Source of the DNA: a virus
DNA: 44,346 nt
UHGV virus genome: UHGV-0027446
Strand: one strand, 5' to 3'
Part shown: piece by piece, positions 300-11,027 of the stretch
How the letters are laid out: each line of letters starts with the position of its first letter
Numbering within the stretch: position 1 is the stretch's first letter
Position numbers and translations under genes: made by a program
The notes under the pieces: generated by a model
Database searches by the model: none
What the model saw: the letters and a program-made list of their open reading frames with translations, nothing else
What the model was told of the DNA's origin: nothing

Positions 300-2839
300 T
301 CATCCACTACACCCGCAACGAAGACGGGACGTTCTCACAAAAACGGCATAACGACTCGCCGCTGAATTTCGTCGTAAACCATATCCCTGACGGTGTGCCG
401 TTTCGCGTTTTTCTCGAAGAGATAGGGGAGGATAACGACGTAACAGAAGATTTTGACGCATTAAAACAGGATGCTGTTTTTCACGTCCTGGAAGGTGCTG
501 GTGGCGGCGCTATAAAGGGTGTGATGAAAGTGTTCAGCATAATCCTTAAACCGCTGGCTAAATTACTCACACCGTCAACAAAGGGTGCGTCTAATAATCT
601 CGCTAACCAGCAAGCGGACTCGCCGAATAACAGTCTGACGGACCGAAATAACAAGGCCCGACCATATGAGCGAACTTATGACATCTGCGGCCGGGTGCAG
701 ACAATACCCAACAACCTTATGACAACTTATAAGGTTTTCGATAACGCGGGCCGCATCATTGAGTACGGCTACTATGATGCCGGGCGCGGGTATCTGGACG
801 TTAAAGCGGAAGACATCACCGACGGAGACACCAAAGTCCAGGAGATAACCGGAACTTCTGTAGCGGTGTACGCCCCGTACACGTCACCCAATAACACAAG
901 CTCTCCGCAACTTCTTGTTGGCGAACCTATCGACCAAAAGTTGTATATCACCATAGCATCTAATGAAGTAGACGGTGCGGTACTGAAAGCTCAAAACGGC
1001 ATAAGAGTAAACCCAAGCGATACCGGTGAGATATCGCTGCAAGGGACAACGGGTATTGTACGTGATGCAACCGGAGATTCCGCGTTTACAGAAATTCTGT
1101 CAGTTGGCGATGTGGCCGTTTTCAATCTCATTCTGGTAAAAGATGTCGCTAACGTAAGCGGTAATTATACGGTCACTTACGTCGATGATTTCGAGGTTAG
1201 AGTCGCTGTAGGTGGTATGCTCACCGAATGGCAGAAGTTGCCATCTGGTTTCACACGGATGACACAGGGTAACGAGGCGTGGATTTCACCCTCAAACACA
1301 TATGATAAATCATTAACCGACTGGACAACGCTTAACCGTCTGCCAGTAGAGCGCATCGTTGCAAATATTGCCGCCGCTAATGGCATGTATAAAGACAATG
1401 GCAGTAAACTAAGGGCCTCTGTCACCGTCGAGTTGCAGTATCAGTTACTCGATACCACCGGAACACCTTACGGGCCTGTATATAGTAAGCAAGGCGCCAT
1501 CTCAGGGCGGTCGTCAGATTACACCGGCGTAACAATCTATGCTGACCTGCCGTCGGCGTCTAACGTTCGTGTAAGGGCGCGCAGGGTGACAAACCTGGAC
1601 CTTGCTTTCGAAGGTACAGTAGTGGACGAGGTTTCTTACATAAACCTGTACGGGCAAATACGCGACACCACACCTAACTACGGAAACAGAACCACCGTAC
1701 ATTCAGCACGTAAACAGACACCCCGGGCCGCAGAGGTTAAACAGCCACAATTGCGAATGGTAGTAACTGAGATGGTGTACAAGTACCTCGGTAACGGTGT
1801 TTTTGACTCCGTAAGAACGCCAAACACGCAAGCGGTACAGTCGCTGATTCGTCTTGCCCGTGACCCTGATGTCGGCGCGTTGAATCTGACAACGGCAAAT
1901 ATGGATAAACTGTTAGCGGTACAGAGCGAAATTGAGGGCTATTTCGGTAGCGCATCCGCAGGAGAGTTTTGCTACACGTTTGATGACTATAAAACTACGA
2001 TGCAGGACATAGTAACTACGATAGCGGAAGCAATTTTCTGCACTCCATATCGTAGAGGCGCGGATGTTCTTCTGGACTTTGAGCGCCCGCGAATTGGTCC
2101 CGAGATGGTATTTACCCACCGCAGCAAAACCACCGCTACGGAGAAGTGGACACGCACGTTTAACGATGCCCAGGTATACGATAGCCTTAAGTTTTCATAC
2201 ATCGACCCGGATACTAACGTCAAAGAGACAATCAGCATCCCGGCCGAGGGCGGGGTTAATACTGAAACGTACGACTCTAAAGGTATCCGTAATTATCGAC
2301 AGGCGTACTGGGCCGCATATCGTCGATATCAGAAAAACCTGTTGAAGAAGGTGACAGTATCGTTCACGGCGACAGAAGAAGGGATTTTTGCAATGCCTGG
2401 GCGGGCGGTAAGTGTGGTGAAAGGTTCACGTATAGCCCCGCAAGACGGTTATGTAATCGCCGTTAATGGTCTTACCCTGACTTTATCACAGCCCGTTACG
2501 TTTACCCCCGGTGATGACCACTCACTGATTCTTAAGAAGCGAGACGGGGGAGTTCAAAGTGTCGCCGTTGTGCCTGGAAGCCACGACCGTGAAGTGGTTA
2601 TGCTATCCGCGCCACAGGAGGCGATATACACGGGGAATAGCGCACTAAAAACTGAGTTTTCATTCGGCAACGAAGCAAGGCATAATGCTCAGATGATTCT
2701 TGTTTCTACAGTTGACCCTGGAGACGACAGAACGGTTAAGATTACCGGGATTAAATATGAAGCAGATTTCTATAAATACGACGGCGTCGCGCCATACGGC
2801 AGCGGTTTCTCCGACGGATTCAGCAACGGTTTTAGTTAA
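290..2839 (+). CDS. tail tip / host-specificity protein (gpJ-like central fibre)
   Basis: 849-codon ORF after minor tail genes and before tailspike; TTG start preceded by AGGAG at about -9; Gly-rich hydrophobic N-terminal segment. Confidence 0.5.
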   Translation: MAIVIHYTRNEDGTFSQKRHNDSPLNFVVNHIPDGVPFRVFLEEIGEDNDVTEDFDALKQDAVFHVLEGAGGGAIKGVMKVFSIILKPLAKLLTPSTKGASNNLANQQADSPNNSLTDRNNKARPYERTYDICGRVQTIPNNLMTTYKVFDNAGRIIEYGYYDAGRGYLDVKAEDITDGDTKVQEITGTSVAVYAPYTSPNNTSSPQLLVGEPIDQKLYITIASNEVDGAVLKAQNGIRVNPSDTGEISLQGTTGIVRDATGDSAFTEILSVGDVAVFNLILVKDVANVSGNYTVTYVDDFEVRVAVGGMLTEWQKLPSGFTRMTQGNEAWISPSNTYDKSLTDWTTLNRLPVERIVANIAAANGMYKDNGSKLRASVTVELQYQLLDTTGTPYGPVYSKQGAISGRSSDYTGVTIYADLPSASNVRVRARRVTNLDLAFEGTVVDEVSYINLYGQIRDTTPNYGNRTTVHSARKQTPRAAEVKQPQLRMVVTEMVYKYLGNGVFDSVRTPNTQAVQSLIRLARDPDVGALNLTTANMDKLLAVQSEIEGYFGSASAGEFCYTFDDYKTTMQDIVTTIAEAIFCTPYRRGADVLLDFERPRIGPEMVFTHRSKTTATEKWTRTFNDAQVYDSLKFSYIDPDTNVKETISIPAEGGVNTETYDSKGIRNYRQAYWAAYRRYQKNLLKKVTVSFTATEEGIFAMPGRAVSVVKGSRIAPQDGYVIAVNGLTLTLSQPVTFTPGDDHSLILKKRDGGVQSVAVVPGSHDREVVMLSAPQEAIYTGNSALKTEFSFGNEARHNAQMILVSTVDPGDDRTVKITGIKYEADFYKYDGVAPYGSGFSDGFSNGFS

Positions 2840-2851
2840 AGAGGACTCTAT

Positions 2852-4870
2852 ATGTCAAGCGGATGCGGTGACGTTTTAAGCCTGGCGGATTTACAGACCG
2901 CCAAGAAACACCAGATTTTCGAAGCCGAGGTTATCACCGGTAAATCCGGCGGGGTTGCTGGTGGTGCTGATATTGATTACGCGACCAATGCTGTTACCTG
3001 GCAGACTCAGAAGACGCTACCCGCCGTGTTGCGTGACGCTGGCTTTTCTCCTGTGTCGTGGGATTTTGCTACAGGCGGAACACTAGCGGTCAACGACCGG
3101 GATAGGGTAGTTTATGACCCGGTTAGCAAAACATGGTACTCATACGCGGGAACGTTGCCTGTTACCGTTCCCGCCGGGTTTAACCCTGTTGGTAACGCTA
3201 ACTGGAAGCCGCAAACTGACCCAAATTTGAGGGACGATTTGTCCGCGCCGGATGGCCTCCGCCGTATAGGGCAAGTAAGTACGATAGCGGTGCTTCGGAC
3301 CATAGAGCCGGTGTCCAACGGCCAAAAAATACTTGTCGAGCAACACACGTCATCGACCGGTTTGGGAGGCGGCACATTCCAGGCGGTTATCCCTGGCACG
3401 TCCTTAACCGATAACAACGGGACGGTGATTAAAACCGCATCTGGAGCCGCGTGGCGGAGAGTTAATTATAAGGTCGCGACCCCCCGCATGTTTGGAGCAC
3501 TGGGGGATGGGATTACTAATGACCTTTCTGCGTTAAACGCAGCATTGGCCTCGGAGAAGGTAGTAGACGGCGAGGGTCTTACGTACCTCGTCCAATCAGG
3601 GGCGATTACAGTACCGTCATCGCGGACGTTTCGCAACGCCACCATTACCGAACCAGCGGTATCTAATACGACAATGCTTAGAGTTACCGGTAGCAACGTA
3701 ACGGTGTCTGATGTGAGTTTCGACGGTTCGACAGGCACTACCAGCCGCGGGATAATCGTCAATGCGGGCCTCTCTGATGTGCATATATTCAAGTGCAAGG
3801 CGAACGACCTTAAAAAACCATTTGTAGGGGTGTCCGGAGACTATGTTAATAATCTCTTCTGTGTTCGCATAACAATTGATAAATGTTTTGCCAATAACTG
3901 TGGCAACGACGGCACAAACTACGACAGAGCTACTGTAATATTTGATGGTGTTTCTGGTTGCACCGTAAAAGATTGCTACTTCAGTTCATGTAACTGGGGC
4001 ATCTCTTTTAGGCAGCCGTATGATTACCCGGCGCTAACAAATCCTTATGCGTTTTATAATAAAGTTGAGGGTTGCTACCTATCCGGGAAGGCCGGGTATC
4101 CCTATAACCAGGGGATTAGTGCGCAAAGCCAAAAGCATTTTTCGGCGTCAGGTAACACCATAGAAGGTTTTCTAGGGAACGCTATTGATAACCAGCGATG
4201 CGATTTCAGTCGCATAGAAAACAACAAATTGACGTCTGGTGACGACGGAGTGTTCTTTGGGGATTTAAACTGCAAGGGGCACGTTGTTACTGGTAACGTA
4301 ATTACTGGATGTGTAAGAGGGATTAGGGTTTATGGTGCTGTAGGAGATTGGGCTAATCAGGCCATGACGGATATAACCATAACCGGTAACATAATAACGG
4401 ATTCCACCGTAGTAGGCATCTATGTGTACCGCACGGAGCCTACTAACTCCTTTGCTGGTTTTAACATCACAGGAAATATCATAGACAACTCAGGCACAAG
4501 GGGTATAGCCAGCAACACGCAAGGCGTTCTCGTAACAGGGTTGTCGGGTGGTGTCGTGTCGAATAACGTTATACGCAATACGCGCATGGAAGGTTTAAGG
4601 TTCGAGAACTCAGTTGGGGTTGTGGCTGTGGGTAATTCTGTAACTGGATTCGATTACTCCGCTACGGCGCAAGCTGGTATTTACTTAGATGTAAACTCAA
4701 GAGGTGTACAGCTAAGGAACTCCACTATTTCAGTTTCAGGCGGCTCAGGTGCAGCAGTTCGCGAGGCAGGAGTTAATAACACAGTAACCGGGACCAGATG
4801 GAACGGAGTCACTACTGGGGTTAACTCCACCGGCACAGGTGCTGTTTTATCCGATAACTCAGCGTATTAA
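2852..4870 (+). CDS. tailspike protein with parallel beta-helix (putative polysaccharide depolymerase)
   Basis: ATG after AAGAGGA; N-terminal W.Y.GTLP..VPAG adaptor-type motif; C-terminal repeats of GN.ITG/ NNVIRN typical of a right-handed beta-helix. Confidence 0.7.
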   Translation: MSSGCGDVLSLADLQTAKKHQIFEAEVITGKSGGVAGGADIDYATNAVTWQTQKTLPAVLRDAGFSPVSWDFATGGTLAVNDRDRVVYDPVSKTWYSYAGTLPVTVPAGFNPVGNANWKPQTDPNLRDDLSAPDGLRRIGQVSTIAVLRTIEPVSNGQKILVEQHTSSTGLGGGTFQAVIPGTSLTDNNGTVIKTASGAAWRRVNYKVATPRMFGALGDGITNDLSALNAALASEKVVDGEGLTYLVQSGAITVPSSRTFRNATITEPAVSNTTMLRVTGSNVTVSDVSFDGSTGTTSRGIIVNAGLSDVHIFKCKANDLKKPFVGVSGDYVNNLFCVRITIDKCFANNCGNDGTNYDRATVIFDGVSGCTVKDCYFSSCNWGISFRQPYDYPALTNPYAFYNKVEGCYLSGKAGYPYNQGISAQSQKHFSASGNTIEGFLGNAIDNQRCDFSRIENNKLTSGDDGVFFGDLNCKGHVVTGNVITGCVRGIRVYGAVGDWANQAMTDITITGNIITDSTVVGIYVYRTEPTNSFAGFNITGNIIDNSGTRGIASNTQGVLVTGLSGGVVSNNVIRNTRMEGLRFENSVGVVAVGNSVTGFDYSATAQAGIYLDVNSRGVQLRNSTISVSGGSGAAVREAGVNNTVTGTRWNGVTTGVNSTGTGAVLSDNSAY

Positions 4871-5049: not shown

Positions 5050-5561
5050 CTGGTAAATTTCCTCGCAAGATACGTTATTTCTTCTTCACAAAGTTCATCA
5101 AGGTCGTTAGATACAAATCCTCTGGTGAATGTTTTGCTGAACTTTAAGCCCGCTTTATCATTGTCGCCGGCGCACACCCAATCATACGGCAAAAGTGACA
5201 TTTGCTGCCGTAAATCGGCTGGTATATTCGACCCCAGTGCGCTTACGGCATTGAACCCGCGATTCATCAAGGCTACGGCTTTGAATATGCTTTCGGTAAC
5301 AAATACCACCCCGCTATCCGGCAAATACTCAAGCCCCCATAAACACGGCCTTGTTGTTCTGGTAAAGTATCTCGCGTCTTTAGGGTTTTTACAGTTCTTT
5401 TCCGCATGTGGTTTGTAATGCTGGTATCCGCGAAGCCTACCATCAAACCCCCACAGGTAAAACGTAGCTACTCCAGAGCCTAAGACTACACGTAAACGGT
5501 CAGCGTCAAAACCTCGTGACAGCAGATGCGCCTTAAGTAGTAACTCCTCGCAATCCATCAT
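5046..5561 (-). CDS. Toprim-domain protein (DnaG-like primase core fragment)
   Basis: VVFVTESIFKAVAL (conserved Glu) and VCAGDNDKAGL (DxD) motifs; ATGA overlap with helicase gene. Confidence 0.4.
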   Translation of the reverse strand: MMDCEELLLKAHLLSRGFDADRLRVVLGSGVATFYLWGFDGRLRGYQHYKPHAEKNCKNPKDARYFTRTTRPCLWGLEYLPDSGVVFVTESIFKAVALMNRGFNAVSALGSNIPADLRQQMSLLPYDWVCAGDNDKAGLKFSKTFTRGFVSNDLDELCEEEITYLARKFTR

Positions 5562-6982
5562 TTCTTACCTCGTCTCTTCATGTAATTAAGCAACTCTTCC
5601 TGTACCGATTTCTTCTCGTCTGTGCGCGCGGCAACAACCTCATCCAGCGTGTCTTTAGCAACGATGTGGTACAGGAACACAGGGCGCTCGTGGCCTGCCT
5701 GTTTCTGGCGAACTGGGCCTATGCGCTCGACAACCTGCAAATAGTGCTCAAGGTTCCAGCCTTGCGAAATAAACGCCAGATGATGCCCGCCGTCCTGTAA
5801 ATTCAAACCATGACCGGCTGACGCAGGGTGCACGCATAAGATTTCGATTTCGCCACGGTTCCACGCTTCCATCTGTTTATTACCCTTCGCGCCTTTGGCA
5901 AACGCCTGTGCCTGCGGGAACCGCTTAAGGATGCGCTCCAGTTCGTGCTTGAACTGATAGGCCACCAGTAACGGCGCGCCCTGTAACTCCTCAACAATCG
6001 ACTCGAGCGCATCCAGTTTCGTGTCATGCACTTTCTCCCAGTCTTTGGTTGCTTCTCCGTCTGGCCCTGACACGTATACAGCGCCGGATGCAATCTGTAA
6101 ACACTTAGACGTTTTCGCTGCGGCGTTAGCCGCTTCGACTTCTCCGCTTTCAAGTTCCGCAAATAGCTTCTCCTCCATATCGATGTACGCCTGTCGCGCT
6201 TTCTTCGGCAGGTTGATTTCAACCGGTACAATAATCGGCGCTTCACAACCAAACCACTCGGCAGCGTCAATCGTGAGACTGATGTCCTTCATCTTCTGGT
6301 GAATTTCATTATCCGCACCAGGGCGGGCGTGGTATTCGCGCGCCATAGCCGACTTACCTTTCTGCACCGAGTTAAACCAGCGGTCGGTGAATGCCGTGTA
6401 TGAAGACCCGAGGCGCTCGCCGGCGTCGATAAACCAGTTCTGCCCCCACAAGTCCTTGAGGCCGTTCGGTGACGGTGTCCCTGTAAGGTTTATCAGCCGC
6501 TTAACATTTCTAAATGCTACTTTACTAAGCGCCTTTGCCCTCTTGCTCCCGCCAGAACGGCTACGGAATGATTTCAACTTCGTGCTTTCATCATTAACTA
6601 TCACGGTAAAAGGCCAGTCGTCTACGCCGTAATAGTCGATAAGCCACTCTATAACCTCATAGTTAATACAAATTACATTAGCGTCAGACTCCAGCGCCGC
6701 GATGCGGCGCTTCTCTGAACCGGTTGCATCGACGACACGCAGACACGGGAAACCCCACTTAGTTTGTTCTGCTGGCCATGTACCAGACGCAACGCGCAAC
6801 GGGGCGAGAATTAACACGCGGTCGTCGTCCGTAAGCTGCCCGTTGCGGAACAGGCGGTTTAAAGCCCACAGTACGCTGCCAGTCTTCCCGGCGCCCATGC
6901 TCGCCCAAATATTACAGCGATTGTGCCGCAACATGAACGAGGTCATGAGCTTCTGGTACTCGCGCCTTTGAAACTTACTCAT
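5558..6982 (-). CDS. SF2 (SNF2/DEAD-like) DNA helicase
   Basis: Walker A GAGKTG, DExx-like IVNDEST, C-terminal helicase domain motifs; in replication operon. Confidence 0.75.
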   Translation of the reverse strand: MSKFQRREYQKLMTSFMLRHNRCNIWASMGAGKTGSVLWALNRLFRNGQLTDDDRVLILAPLRVASGTWPAEQTKWGFPCLRVVDATGSEKRRIAALESDANVICINYEVIEWLIDYYGVDDWPFTVIVNDESTKLKSFRSRSGGSKRAKALSKVAFRNVKRLINLTGTPSPNGLKDLWGQNWFIDAGERLGSSYTAFTDRWFNSVQKGKSAMAREYHARPGADNEIHQKMKDISLTIDAAEWFGCEAPIIVPVEINLPKKARQAYIDMEEKLFAELESGEVEAANAAAKTSKCLQIASGAVYVSGPDGEATKDWEKVHDTKLDALESIVEELQGAPLLVAYQFKHELERILKRFPQAQAFAKGAKGNKQMEAWNRGEIEILCVHPASAGHGLNLQDGGHHLAFISQGWNLEHYLQVVERIGPVRQKQAGHERPVFLYHIVAKDTLDEVVAARTDEKKSVQEELLNYMKRRGKK

Positions 6983-7720: not shown

Positions 7721-7848
7721 TCCAGTACCCACAAATAAATTGCTACTAGCATACCCAATACGGCGACCATCATGCCGTATTGACCCTCGTGACAGTAGAC
7801 ACCGGCGGCGAAGCCCGCCAGTACCGCGATAATCAGTTTACTTAGCAT
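7717..7848 (-). CDS. small hydrophobic membrane peptide (43 aa)
   Basis: Hand-translated MLSKLIIAVLAGFAAGVYCHEGQYGMMVAVLGMLVAIYLWVLE; start overlaps last codons of polymerase gene. Confidence 0.25.
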   Translation of the reverse strand: MLSKLIIAVLAGFAAGVYCHEGQYGMMVAVLGMLVAIYLWVLE

Positions 7849-10800
7849 AACGCTTCATCTCCGCGCCTTCCGCTACAAGAGGGAAGCCCTCTGCCCATTC
7901 CGGCAATTCGCACATCAACCGCCCAAGCTCTGCGACATTGTATTCTGGTAAATCTGGCGTCTCGCAGATAATCTCATCGTGAACATGAAGCACAATAGGA
8001 TAGCCGTTTGCCTCTACGTTCAGCAGTGCATTAGCCAGCAAATCACGGCACAGCGCCTGAGTGCAGTTTTCCACCAGTTTACCAGAGTAGGTGTACTGGA
8101 AACCCCACTGCCGTGTTAACTGGTTTTCACCCTGGTACTTGATGCGGACGTTAGTAGACACCTTCCCGTCTTCGTCTGTCTCTTTAGACACGCTTAACCC
8201 GACTCCGGGGTAAGACATAACGCGGCCCGACGGCAGCGTCATGCGCAACCACCAACCAGCGACTTTGTTGCCGTTGCTATCTGTCTCTACGTTGCGCGAA
8301 AATTTAACGCCGCGTGGCCCTGCAGTGAACTCTTTGCCAGGATTACGGATAGCCGCCATAGCCGCATCTTCAATATCCCGCCAGAACGCTACTGTTTCCG
8401 GGTGTGACTCACGCCACATGCGCTTGATAGCGTCGCAGGTACGCCACACTTTCTTATCAAGAATATACGATGGTCGGTCATCCTTTTCACCGGGCCGCGG
8501 AGGTCGCTTGGCTTCCTGAATACGCGCCCATTCATATCCGCGTGCAGTAGCGGCCCATATATGGTCGGGGAAAGTACCGTCCATTGTTTTAGCCATATCA
8601 ACAAGATTTAAGCCGAGGTTTTTAGCAAACTGAACGAAAGCGCCGACGCCGCCTGCGTAGCCGAGGCCCAATTCACAGTTATGCGCCACAAGAAAGCCAG
8701 AGTCTGACGCTATAAGAAAACGGTTACCGTCTTCCACATCAATCAGGTCGTAAACCGGCTCGCAGTAGGTTAATTTCCCGTTCAAGCTCAGCAATGCGGG
8801 CAACGGCTGCATCATATTTTCGTTGAAGCTCGGGTATTTGCCGCCTGTTACGGCAGTTTTCAGAACGGCTGACAAACCGAATGTTTCCAGGTTCGTAGTT
8901 ACCGTCTGTGTCGATTCTGTCCATTTCGAGGTTTGGGTCGTCCCAGCCTTCCAGAGTTTGAACATATCTAAGAAACGACCTTTTATCAGTCCTCCACTGG
9001 TTAAATACCGTGATGCCCCTGGCGCCATAGTTTTTATAGCCTTTGTCATTAGGTTTTGTTGTTCGCGATATCGCCGCGGACAGCCGGTTGAGCAATCGCG
9101 CTCTGTGACTGTCATCTGGCATCGCATCCTCGTAACAGAAATACTGTTTACGATATTTTTTTGTTGCTTCAAGTGCGCAGCGGTTACATTGAGTGGTTTT
9201 ACCTCTTCTAACATTGTCGTACCCGACGCGCCCCGGAATCTCTCCGCAATCACATTGAGCAAGTAGTTGTCTATGACCTTGTCGTTTTGGTAACTCGCGC
9301 AGGATAACCAGGCGTCCATACCTCTCTCCAGGGCGAGGCCCATCATATATTTGTTTGAAACGAGTTGCTTTGCCGCCTTCCAGGAATGCGTCAATATTTT
9401 GTGGTCTTCGGTCATTAGAACCCCGTCCACATTTATCACTGGTTTCCACCCCATAAGGTGCGCGCCTTTTGTATTCACCCATTTTTCACCGTTCCATACT
9501 TTATCTGTTGATGTAACCGCCATAATATCCTTAAATCCACCATCGGTCAAAACTTGGGTATGGCGGTGAAGACAGGCCTTGCCAATCTGGCGCAGGTCAC
9601 TACGGCTTTCGAGAATGTAATCGGGGTCCATTCCGAACATCTTACCCGCAGTTACACAGTAAATATCCAGTCCCGCACGGAAAGTATCGAGAGCGGTTTC
9701 TTCTCCCGCCAGCCATGCCAACCCGCGTCCTTCAACGTTAGAGTAATCGGCGACTACAAACTTATGTCCGGCTTCCGGTATGATGCAGCTACGCACCGTC
9801 GATGCCGTTAGTTTGGCCACATCAAAACGGCGATGCGCACGGCCTTTAAACAACAGGTCGATTCCGTAGGACAATGGGTGTGTTACTCGCCACCAGTCCT
9901 TCTCTGACATCCAGTCATAGCGTACTTTCTTCTTTTTATTCTTCGGGTCGTCGTGATAGTACCCGCGCGCCAGGTTCTGCGGCTGAAAGCCTTTGCCCGC
10001 AAATCGTAATGTACGCTTCGCTCCGCCATACTGGATGCAACCACGACGGCGGTCGTCCGACGAGCGGCCCAACAGCAGCGGGTTATATTTCGTTGACGCG
10101 GTAGACGCGGCTCCGAGGCGCATTTCGATAATCATGCGGGCGTCGTCCGGTAAATCATCATCCGCCAACAAGTCATTCAGCGTTGACTTCTGCGCGTTGT
10201 GGATGCGGTGCGCGGGTGCGAGTTCACGCAGAATCGGCAGAAAGTCTTTACCAGTAAGCGAGCCGCCGTATTTTCGTTGGGCTTCTTCCTGTAACTGCGC
10301 TTTGTGTTTCTCCACGGCTTCAATCGCGGCTTCTGCCAGCGCGACGTCTACCTTAAACCCTCGGTCATTGATTAACTGGTCCAGCTCAAGTACACGGTCC
10401 TCGAACTCTGAGTTACCCCACCGCGGCAGCTTATGGAAGACTTCACGCATCGCAGTGATGTCGCTCACGGCGTACTTGATGAACAGCGCCCACTCGTCCG
10501 GGTGTGTTTCGGCGGTGTAGCGGCGGATTTTGTAGTTCTTCGGCGTAGGTTTAGAAAAACGCTGAATCAGCGCCTTGCCGCGTTTGTCTTTTGCGTTGTC
10601 TGCGGACACGCCCAACACTTCGCACAAAGCATCAAGTGAACCCGGCAGCGCGTGACGAAACGCCCAAATCATCGTATCAATGGTGTTGTTTACCGGAATA
10701 TCAAAACCCCAGCAGTGTTTCATGATGAGCCTGTCGAACATTGAACCGTTGTGCCACACCATCTTGATACGGCTGTTCGGTTTAACCAGACGGCGTAGCG

Positions 10801-10987
10801 CGCGGTGCAAATCGCCAGGCATGTCGCTGCCGTCTGTGCAGTCCCATACCTGTACGGGCTCGTCGTCAAAAGCATAAGTACAGATGAGCACTTCGGTTGA
10901 CGGGTGTTCGGCGTAAGCGTAGGAACCGACTTTCTTTAAATCGACTCCGGAGAATGTTTCAAAGTCTAAGTAGAGTAATTCTGGCAT
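7838..10987 (-). CDS. family-A DNA polymerase with 3'-5' exonuclease domain, interrupted by an intein
   Basis: Exo I motif YLDFETFS; motif A VVADYSNVEGR; motif B split by a 299-codon insertion; likely start at ATG (MPELLYLDFE), track ORF extends to TTG at 11017. Confidence 0.85.
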   Translation of the reverse strand: MPELLYLDFETFSGVDLKKVGSYAYAEHPSTEVLICTYAFDDEPVQVWDCTDGSDMPGDLHRALRRLVKPNSRIKMVWHNGSMFDRLIMKHCWGFDIPVNNTIDTMIWAFRHALPGSLDALCEVLGVSADNAKDKRGKALIQRFSKPTPKNYKIRRYTAETHPDEWALFIKYAVSDITAMREVFHKLPRWGNSEFEDRVLELDQLINDRGFKVDVALAEAAIEAVEKHKAQLQEEAQRKYGGSLTGKDFLPILRELAPAHRIHNAQKSTLNDLLADDDLPDDARMIIEMRLGAASTASTKYNPLLLGRSSDDRRRGCIQYGGAKRTLRFAGKGFQPQNLARGYYHDDPKNKKKKVRYDWMSEKDWWRVTHPLSYGIDLLFKGRAHRRFDVAKLTASTVRSCIIPEAGHKFVVADYSNVEGRGLAWLAGEETALDTFRAGLDIYCVTAGKMFGMDPDYILESRSDLRQIGKACLHRHTQVLTDGGFKDIMAVTSTDKVWNGEKWVNTKGAHLMGWKPVINVDGVLMTEDHKILTHSWKAAKQLVSNKYMMGLALERGMDAWLSCASYQNDKVIDNYLLNVIAERFRGASGTTMLEEVKPLNVTAAHLKQQKNIVNSISVTRMRCQMTVTERDCSTGCPRRYREQQNLMTKAIKTMAPGASRYLTSGGLIKGRFLDMFKLWKAGTTQTSKWTESTQTVTTNLETFGLSAVLKTAVTGGKYPSFNENMMQPLPALLSLNGKLTYCEPVYDLIDVEDGNRFLIASDSGFLVAHNCELGLGYAGGVGAFVQFAKNLGLNLVDMAKTMDGTFPDHIWAATARGYEWARIQEAKRPPRPGEKDDRPSYILDKKVWRTCDAIKRMWRESHPETVAFWRDIEDAAMAAIRNPGKEFTAGPRGVKFSRNVETDSNGNKVAGWWLRMTLPSGRVMSYPGVGLSVSKETDEDGKVSTNVRIKYQGENQLTRQWGFQYTYSGKLVENCTQALCRDLLANALLNVEANGYPIVLHVHDEIICETPDLPEYNVAELGRLMCELPEWAEGFPLVAEGAEMKRYAK
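8678..9574 (-). mobile_element. intein inserted in polymerase motif B
   Basis: Starts CLHRHTQVLTDGG (block A), has LMTEDHKILT (block B), ends YDLIDVEDGNRFLIASDSGFLVAHN with Cys at +1; excision restores RQIGKA-CELGLGYAGG. Confidence 0.7.
8739..9482 (-). CDS. HNH homing endonuclease, encoded in an alternative frame within the intein
   Basis: 247-codon ORF, same strand as polymerase but a different frame; YGRLVIL, QCDCGEIPGRVGYDNVRRGKTTQCNRC, KGYKNYGARGITVFNQW, LEMDRIDTDGNYEPGNIRFVSRSENCRNRR. Confidence 0.55.
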   Translation of the reverse strand: MGEYKRRAPYGVETSDKCGRGSNDRRPQNIDAFLEGGKATRFKQIYDGPRPGERYGRLVILRELPKRQGHRQLLAQCDCGEIPGRVGYDNVRRGKTTQCNRCALEATKKYRKQYFCYEDAMPDDSHRARLLNRLSAAISRTTKPNDKGYKNYGARGITVFNQWRTDKRSFLRYVQTLEGWDDPNLEMDRIDTDGNYEPGNIRFVSRSENCRNRRQIPELQRKYDAAVARIAELEREINLLRAGLRPD

Positions 10988-11007
10988 GGTATTTCGACCC
11001 TTAGTAA

Positions 11008-11027
11008 AAAGGCCCAATGAAGGGCCT
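11008..11027 (-). terminator. intercistronic hairpin / attenuator between SSB-like gene and polymerase gene
   Basis: AAGGCCC-loop-GGGCCTT followed on the minus-strand transcript by UUUUUACU; lies in the 30-nt gap just upstream of the polymerase RBS. Confidence 0.45.

Follow-up and report, generated by a model that had tools for sequence, protein, structure and literature searches.

Inteins that hold a homing endonuclease outside their own reading frame have been described in actinobacteriophages, in which 'frame 3' encodes an endonuclease VII-like homing endonuclease (Gosselin, Arsenault and Gogarten; bioRxiv 10.1101/2025.01.02.630785). The same preprint calls such architectures rare, reports that the second open reading frames (ORFs) typically lie outside the splicing domain, and proposes that they arose when a free-standing endonuclease gene invaded an intein. 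Here we describe a related arrangement within the DNA polymerase gene carried by the virus genome UHGV-0027446, a phage of the Kagunavirus/Jerseyvirus group (Guernseyvirinae) whose 44,346 nucleotides (nt) make up the window that was analysed. The polymerase gene carries an intein of 299 codons, inside which a second ORF of 247 codons is nested on the same strand. We consider it likely that the two form a composite mobile element, in which a contiguous class 1 intein occupies motif B of a family A polymerase and itself houses, in frame +2, a free-standing-type endonuclease gene.

The 'frame 3' inteins of actinobacteriophages resemble this intein in several respects. In both, the intein is contiguous and has an endonuclease gene inside it, on the same strand and at the same offset ('frame 3' corresponds to +2), and the centre of the intein is structureless in the host frame. 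The host genes in the preprint's survey are those for DNA polymerase (with only Pol III alpha listed), minor capsid, terminase and thymidylate synthase, none of which is a family A polymerase, and it is not stated which of them holds the endonuclease VII-like type. The phages of the preprint infect actinobacteria and their nuclease was matched to T4 endonuclease VII, whereas the nested protein described here belongs with PHROG 374. Furthermore, while the preprint describes its cases as rare, the present family has at least 269 relatives in IMG/VR, its nested ORF reaches into the codons of the splicing domain, and the ATG of that ORF lies in a conserved Trp codon.

Three other systems invite comparison. 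The ShiLan domain of a mycobacteriophage DNA methylase also combines an out-of-frame HNH-type gene with a stop-free host frame (Arsenault et al., 2025, PMC11855218). The ShiLan insert is predicted to loop out and, without a splicing domain, is thought to be retained in the mature protein (PMC11855218); the polymerase insert, in contrast, has a complete HINT domain around it, by which it should be excised. Canonical bifunctional inteins with an in-frame LAGLIDADG or HNH endonuclease, such as PI-SceI and PI-PfuI, have their HINT domain split at the same loop and share the presumed homing cycle, but their endonuclease is a domain of the intein polypeptide, whereas here it would be a separate polypeptide from another frame. 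Fractured genes (Dassa et al., 2009, PMC2677866) likewise have a free-standing-type endonuclease gene between the N- and C-terminal halves of a split intein; there the host gene is divided into two ORFs whose products undergo trans splicing, whereas in the present locus the host frame is open and the intein contiguous.

The literature that we covered, with the subscription papers on SETP3 and Ent1 falling outside its scope, contained no account of this polymerase intein family as dual-coding. An earlier note on the locus had remarked that the arrangement was not known to it as a standard one for inteins. This agrees with our finding no description for the polymerase family in the literature covered, but it does not hold for phage inteins in general, in view of the out-of-frame endonucleases in the 2025 preprint. 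The out-of-frame endonuclease within an intein is thus known; what we report as new is the nuclease family, the host gene, the phage group, the overlap into the splicing blocks, and a far larger and older membership.

Parts of the locus had been annotated previously. The intein appears in public records as 'intein-containing DNA polymerase precursor' or, in phage Ent2, only as 'encoding splicing domains', and the nested ORF was annotated without being understood in SO-1, where it was read as an intron, and in SS3e. The polymerases of VT223 and of Proteus phage ABTNLP14 are mislabelled as 'endonuclease' and 'ssDNA-binding protein' (ssDNA, single-stranded DNA), respectively, and the SS3e polymerase is split in two because of two extra bases in that record; the affected public records are PP280813.1, PQ766629.1, NC_013600.1 and NC_006940.2.

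The intein in polymerase motif B

Pfam assigns a family A polymerase domain and a 3'-5' exonuclease domain to the polymerase ORF (Table 1), and the DNA_pol_A match breaks off at profile position 212, corresponding to residue 481, which is the insertion junction. Alignment with the intein-less polymerase of phiEc4, whose sequence is 98% identical to the exteins, defines an exact 299-codon insertion, RQIGKA|C...VAHN|CELGLGY, and the intein-less junction reads CGCCAGATTGGCAAGGCC|TGTGAATTGGGCCTCGGC. The earlier note had placed this insertion correctly to the base (8678-9574; we find C1 at 9572-9574, TEDH at 9401-9412, and HN together with the +1 Cys at 8675-8683), and its proposal that removal of the insert joins RQIGKA to CELGLGY and so restores motif B is borne out by the phiEc4 alignment. 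In family A polymerases, motif B (the O-helix) has the pattern R-x3-K-x7-Y, to which the rejoined RQIGKA/CELGLGY conforms. The codon numbers that had been given for the insertion (482-780 of 1059) are ten too high in ATG numbering, because homologues begin ten codons after the TTG (11017) picked by the ORF finder, at an ATG (10985-10987) that is probably the true start of the polymerase.

An alignment of 60 related inteins shows no variation at C1, at T55 and H58 (the TxxH of block B), at D276 (the Asp of block F) or at N299, and conservation of H298 in at least 90%; these six residues make up the class 1 catalytic set. At the +1 position this genome has Cys, and its relatives have Cys or Ser. 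The splicing halves adopt the HINT fold in the predicted model, which is matched by the solved inteins 1jva, 1dq3 and 2cw8. Intein residues 105-255, as read in the polymerase frame, have pLDDT scores (predicted local distance difference test) of 40-50 and lack secondary structure.

When the two intein ends were joined and used as a query against 1.84 billion representative proteins, 1413 matches were returned. Ten of these were scanned, and each is a family A polymerase with an interruption at the same profile position or nearby. Contiguous mini-inteins of 135-142 amino acids occupy the same polymerase site in P0124, P0198, P0240 and P0255. Their splicing halves are homologous to those of the present intein and their insertion site is identical, but they have a short linker where this intein has the nested-gene region of ~165 codons.

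Table 1. Coordinates of the polymerase gene, the intein and the nested gene in the window (position 1 is its first nucleotide)
Feature	Position	Strand	Basis
DNA polymerase (family A) precursor ORF, 1059 codons from TTG	7838..11017	-	Pfam DNA_pol_A
N-extein (3'-5' exonuclease domain and polymerase domain to RQIGKA of motif B)	9575..11017	-	Pfam, alignment
Intein, 299 codons, CLHRH...LVAHN	8678..9574	-	phiEc4 alignment, catalytic residues, model
C-extein, from the +1 Cys codon (8675-8677), CELGLGY...	7838..8677	-	Alignment
N-terminal splicing part, residues 1-95; C1 = 9572-9574, block B TEDH = 9401-9412	9290..9574	-	Confidently modelled HINT strands
C-terminal splicing part, residues 251-299; D276 = 8747-8749, H298-N299 = 8678-8683	8678..8824	-	Selection, alignment, model
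Nested ORF, frame +2, 247 codons plus TGA, PHROG 374 (annotated 'HNH endonuclease')	8739..9482	-	ORF scan, PHROG, model
Putative internal start: GGTG (9487-9490), AAAA spacer, ATG (9480-9482)	9480..9490	-	Function inferred
Folded core of the nested protein, residues 50-247	8742..9335	-	Model, pLDDT ~90
Zone with selection on the nested frame and not on the polymerase frame (intein codons 61-250)	8825..9394	-	Site positions, dN/dS

The nested gene and selection in two frames

The nested ORF starts 1535 nt downstream of the start of the polymerase ORF, which gives the offset of +2, and it extends over ~55 N-terminal and ~25 C-terminal splicing codons. Its product matches PHROG 374, annotated as an HNH endonuclease, with E=2.5e-47. 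Other PHROGs annotated 'HNH endonuclease' are also matched, and these together with PHROG 374 are the only positive profile evidence for HNH; a PHROG annotated 'endonuclease VII' is matched weakly (E 1.7e-5). We found 297 homologues in a collection of 5.8 billion proteins, and the distant relatives are free-standing genes in Staphylococcus, Ralstonia and Pseudomonas phages.

In the predicted model of the nested protein, residues 1-45, which overlap the N-terminal splicing part of the intein, are disordered. The remainder is built from a CapR-like beta-barrel that includes a CxC...CxxC zinc ribbon, from a middle region of helices, from a strand-loop-strand-helix unit and from a long C-terminal coiled coil. 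The beta-barrel and zinc-ribbon part corresponds to the Pfam CapR homology domain in two members of the family. The strand-loop-strand-helix unit (residues 185-215) has a putative beta-beta-alpha topology. Structural matches of the model to nucleases are only weak, and N200, N209 and N212 are invariant and placed where HNH Asn residues are expected. A Foldseek search of the PDB with this model gave nothing significant, phmmer and profile searches of PDB sequences gave neither an intein nor an HNH match but only zinc-ribbon and coiled-coil similarities, and a PADLOC scan gave zero matches.

Selection was analysed in twelve copies with a nucleotide divergence of up to 16%, using the positions of variable sites and the ratio of nonsynonymous to synonymous substitution rates (dN/dS). 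Over intein codons 1-60, variable sites fall on polymerase codon position 3, and dN/dS is 0.07-0.08 in the polymerase frame and at least 0.95 (unconstrained) in the nested frame. Over codons 61-250 the ratios are 1.12-1.16 in the polymerase frame versus 0.12-0.21 in the nested frame, and the variable sites of codons 61-260 fall on polymerase position 2, which is nested position 3. From codon 261 they are back on polymerase position 3, and dN/dS over codons 251-299 is 0.04-0.15 in the polymerase frame and at least 0.55 (unconstrained) in the nested frame. When read in the polymerase frame, the middle zone is mostly the predicted disordered linker (~residues 105-255), although its first ~35 codons still belong to the splicing part that was modelled with confidence. 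Selection therefore does not act on the centre of the intein polypeptide as a protein but does act on the nested protein, and the sole demand on the polymerase frame in the intein centre is the absence of stop codons.

This absence was assessed by simulation, in which the nested protein was held fixed and its synonymous codons were redrawn according to phage codon usage in 20,000 trials. The redrawn sequences had a mean expectation of 4.7 stops in the polymerase frame, where none is observed, and 0.28% of them (~1 in 350) were open. It had been argued in the earlier note that two frames open over this length are very unlikely by chance; the low open fraction agrees with this, but ~1 in 350 for a single sequence is not astronomically small, and conservation is the stronger evidence. 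All 67 distinct metagenomic inteins are stop-free in the polymerase frame, against an expectation of 4.6 stops each, and where relatives of the nested protein are free-standing genes, the equivalent frame contains 4-23 stops. The third frame of the same strand in this genome contains 32 stops. The dual-coding nature of the locus, as first proposed from its letters, is upheld on both counts: the 247-codon second frame is real, as seen from its PHROG 374 match, its dN/dS of 0.12 and its folded model, and the intein centre in the polymerase frame holds no domain, with its low pLDDT, its lack of secondary structure and a dN/dS of ~1.1.

An antisense ORF of 147 codons (8823..9266, + strand) also runs across the dual-coding region. 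We regard it as a chance ORF because 8 of 11 relatives have internal stops in it; the low stop content of the region probably accounts for its being open here.

Distribution and probable mobility of the element

The polymerase gene matches 359 phage records, 166 of which have the insert, in 163 cases near full length. Among twelve phage copies that were fetched, the polymerase frame is open in eleven, the exception being the old SS3e record with its 2 extra bases. A scan of IMG/VR with an alignment of the nested protein yielded 269 relatives, and the loci of the best 80 of these (42-93% identity) were examined. The nested gene lies inside an open frame of 600-1280 amino acids, at the same offset, in every one of the 80. 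When three metagenome contigs with homologues are included, 83 loci were covered, and in 80 of them motif B of a family A polymerase holds a C...HN|C/S intein, 277-299 amino acids long. A search of 149 related intein-bearing polymerases for the nested protein in frame gave no hit. The insertions use three neighbouring registers of motif B (GKx|C..HN|CxLGLGY, GKVA|C..HN|CLALGY and GKVxELA|C..HN|CG[FY]xGG), and Ser replaces Cys at the +1 position in two loci (junctions of L014-L096).

We lean towards a large, old and stable dual-coding lineage of mobile elements over a transient accident. In such a lineage a free-standing-type endonuclease gene would long have persisted in the +2 frame of a polymerase intein, while the nested protein diverged to 42% identity and the element moved between three insertion registers, with a start codon embedded in conserved Trp codons of the splicing domain and a polymerase frame that selection keeps free of stops. 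Such a lineage, if real, would provide the best model yet from nature for the sequence of events in which the splicing domain comes first and the endonuclease invades later, and it would mean that evolution can end in the out-of-frame state, which would then not be only a step towards in-frame fusion.

Inteins also occur elsewhere in related polymerases. Many of these (L071, L077, L087, P0122, P0129, P0140 and P0141) have two inteins, one in motif B and one at a YGGKL/VEN site, the latter being either a mini-intein or ~300 residues long. In Caulobacter phage RLK (L097, OQ135106.1; polymerase at 978-3929), a related intein occupies another site of the polymerase, YSGKL|C...LIVHN|CENVVQA. Its nested ORF (2974-3615) has 213 codons, 30% identity to the nested protein and an offset of +1. 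There, too, the host frame is free of stops, and 14 stops lie in the remaining frame. RLK is apparently a second, independent dual-frame case.

The element has the distribution of a homing gene, being sporadic among close relatives and in conflict with the phylogeny of its host gene. Compared with those of the Dhillonvirus phages SO-1, EP23 and PS2, the intein of this phage is 84% identical and its exteins are 59-74% identical. The exteins of this phage are closest (86-94%) to those of an intein-less Kagunavirus, and its intein is closest (93%) to Jerseyvirus copies. Reciprocal mosaic polymerases, in which the change-over lies around the intein, are found in fPoEco01 (L003) and VT223 (L001): the fPoEco01 polymerase is Kagunavirus-like over nt 1-800 and Jerseyvirus-like over nt 2641-3177, and that of VT223 is the reverse.

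In the metagenomic data, the long contigs with relatives (L014, L015 and L016) all end at most 350 nt from the nested gene, and numerous relatives are found on contigs of ~900-1000 nt, which is about the size of the intein. These contig ends at the element may reflect assembly breaks caused by polymorphism in the presence or absence of the intein.

A model for the element and its alternatives

In the mechanism that we propose, ribosomes translating the polymerase would read through the nested gene out of frame, producing an unstructured linker of ~150 residues between the splicing halves. These halves would form a HINT domain, by which the 299-residue insert would be excised and RQIGKA joined to CELGLGY, restoring the polymerase. 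We infer that protein splicing is active because the host gene is essential, the catalytic residues are conserved, and the splicing ends are under purifying selection (dN/dS 0.04-0.15). The nested protein would be made separately, from its own ATG on the same messenger RNA, and could cut intein-less polymerase alleles of co-infecting phages, whereupon repair from the intein-bearing allele would copy the whole element into them (homing). Selection thus keeps the splicing residues at both ends through the polymerase frame and the nuclease-like protein in the middle through the other frame, and excludes stops throughout the polymerase frame.

Internal initiation at the nested ATG is plausible from its setting. 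This conserved ATG is made up of the last base of one polymerase codon and the TG of a conserved intein Trp codon, which is W32 here (codon 9479-9481) and W27 in others, and conserved W-D-G codons upstream of it give rise to a purine-rich GGAYGGTG stretch. In this genome the ATG at Trp27 opens a three-codon mini-ORF, M-E-R-stop (9483-9496, - strand), one codon before the main Trp32 ATG. The Dhillonvirus copies have no stop after the Trp27 ATG, and their nested ORF starts there and is 252 codons long.

Several observations weigh against the composite element as proposed. The intein domain was not detected by sequence profiles: neither Pfam nor NCBIfam returned a relevant match for either translation. 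The nested ORF, 26 members of its family and three relatives at a greater distance all lack a Pfam HNH match, and an hhalign comparison with SETP3 gp37 (Pfam HNH_3, E 3.7e-11) returned a probability of 0.3%. At the end of the first strand, where HNH nucleases have their general-base His, the family has an invariant Arg (D188-R189). The Shine-Dalgarno-like GGTG is weak and only 4 nt before the ATG. Part of the identity gap between intein and exteins could be explained by the double coding constraint, and phage genes are mosaic anyway. Profile searches of the two translations, which the earlier note had suggested, thus recover PHROG 374 but, in Pfam, neither intein nor HNH. Its description of the product as a typical phage HNH homing endonuclease stands insofar as this is a conserved PHROG 374 protein, but not as regards 'typical', and because of the Pfam and hhalign nulls and the Arg at the catalytic-His position we refer to the product as an HNH-like putative endonuclease.

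The same facts speak for a different reading, in which the nested protein is conserved but is no homing nuclease: a non-catalytic DNA-binding or accessory protein that serves the phage or recruits another nuclease and is merely tolerated by the intein. Besides the invariant Arg189, the negative Pfam HNH and hhalign results and the weakness of the structural matches to nucleases, the CapR-type zinc-ribbon and beta-barrel domain at the N-terminus of the nested protein fits this reading, since it resembles a DNA-binding module. However, a gene of benefit to the host would not be expected only inside an intein, which is where it lies in all 80 close relatives examined. The sporadic distribution, the greater conservation of the intein than of the exteins, the scattered and free-standing distant relatives of a kind annotated as homing endonucleases, and the putative beta-beta-alpha topology of the model with invariant Asn200 and Asn209 as expected also argue for a homing nuclease. 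Owing to the Arg at the His position, we leave the non-catalytic reading a small but real probability. We think it very improbable that the nested gene is instead a relic, in an immobile and vertically inherited element, whose ORF is open only through the constraint on the overlapping polymerase frame. Constraint on one frame does slow change in the other where bases are shared, but the polymerase frame is neutral in the centre (dN/dS ~1.1) while the nested frame is not (0.12); the constraint therefore comes from the nested frame, and the relic reading is largely refuted. In addition, even relatives of only 42% identity have an intact ORF, and the presence or absence of the intein cuts across extein relatedness.

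The remaining alternatives concern how the insert is expressed or whether it is an intein at all. A nuclease made as a fusion, through -1 ribosomal frameshifting on the A-run GAAAAAT before the ATG and not through internal initiation, has in its favour that five A's abut the nested ATG in this genome and that a -1 slip would enter the nested frame. The ATG is conserved in the family but the A-run is not (...gttgaATG, ...caatcATG and ...gaagcATG), which makes frameshifting hardly credible, and a fusion of truncated polymerase and nuclease would have no obvious use. The record of Sodalis phage SO-1 annotates the insert as a 'type I self-splicing intron', and group I introns bearing HNH genes do occur in phage DNA polymerase genes (PMC3428280). 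A group I intron with an HNH gene nevertheless has next to no claim here: a cmscan of 8500..9750 against Rfam 15 (E<=1) found no intron match and no group I core, the polymerase frame is open in every intact copy, intein residues and a HINT fold are present, and the polymerase frame is under purifying selection at both ends. A sequencing or assembly artefact, in which two compensating indels hide an in-frame HNH, could point to the old SS3e record, where two extra bases break the polymerase. This explanation, which the earlier note had itself named as fatal to its proposal, is already refuted and keeps virtually no probability: the same frames recur in 163 independent phage records and 80 metagenomic loci, all 80 of the latter with the identical offset, and no in-frame HNH was found in 149 related polymerases.

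If the composite element works as proposed, it would offer a tractable E. coli/Salmonella phage system for the composite-origin model of inteins and for intein-endonuclease cooperation in homing. The locus is also a clean example from nature of dual coding over a long stretch, in which selection can be seen to pass from one frame to the other, and could serve as a benchmark for gene finders and dN/dS methods. The annotation of >160 GenBank phage genomes is corrected, in which the nested gene was missed or read as an intron, or the polymerase was called 'endonuclease', 'hypothetical protein' or 'ssDNA-binding protein'; numerous affected Jerseyvirus/Kagunavirus phages are studied for therapy and biocontrol. 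The tolerance of an intein for a disordered linker of ~150 residues is relevant for intein engineering.

In this phage group, the SNF2-type helicase provides a second site at which the presence of an intein varies. In UHGV-0027446 this gene (5558-6982, - strand) encodes 474 residues and is intein-free, and the helicases of the Jerseyviruses SETP3 and Ent2 are annotated with an intein, that of SETP3 with a Hom_end-associated Hint domain and that of Ent2 with an intein containing a LAGLIDADG endonuclease.

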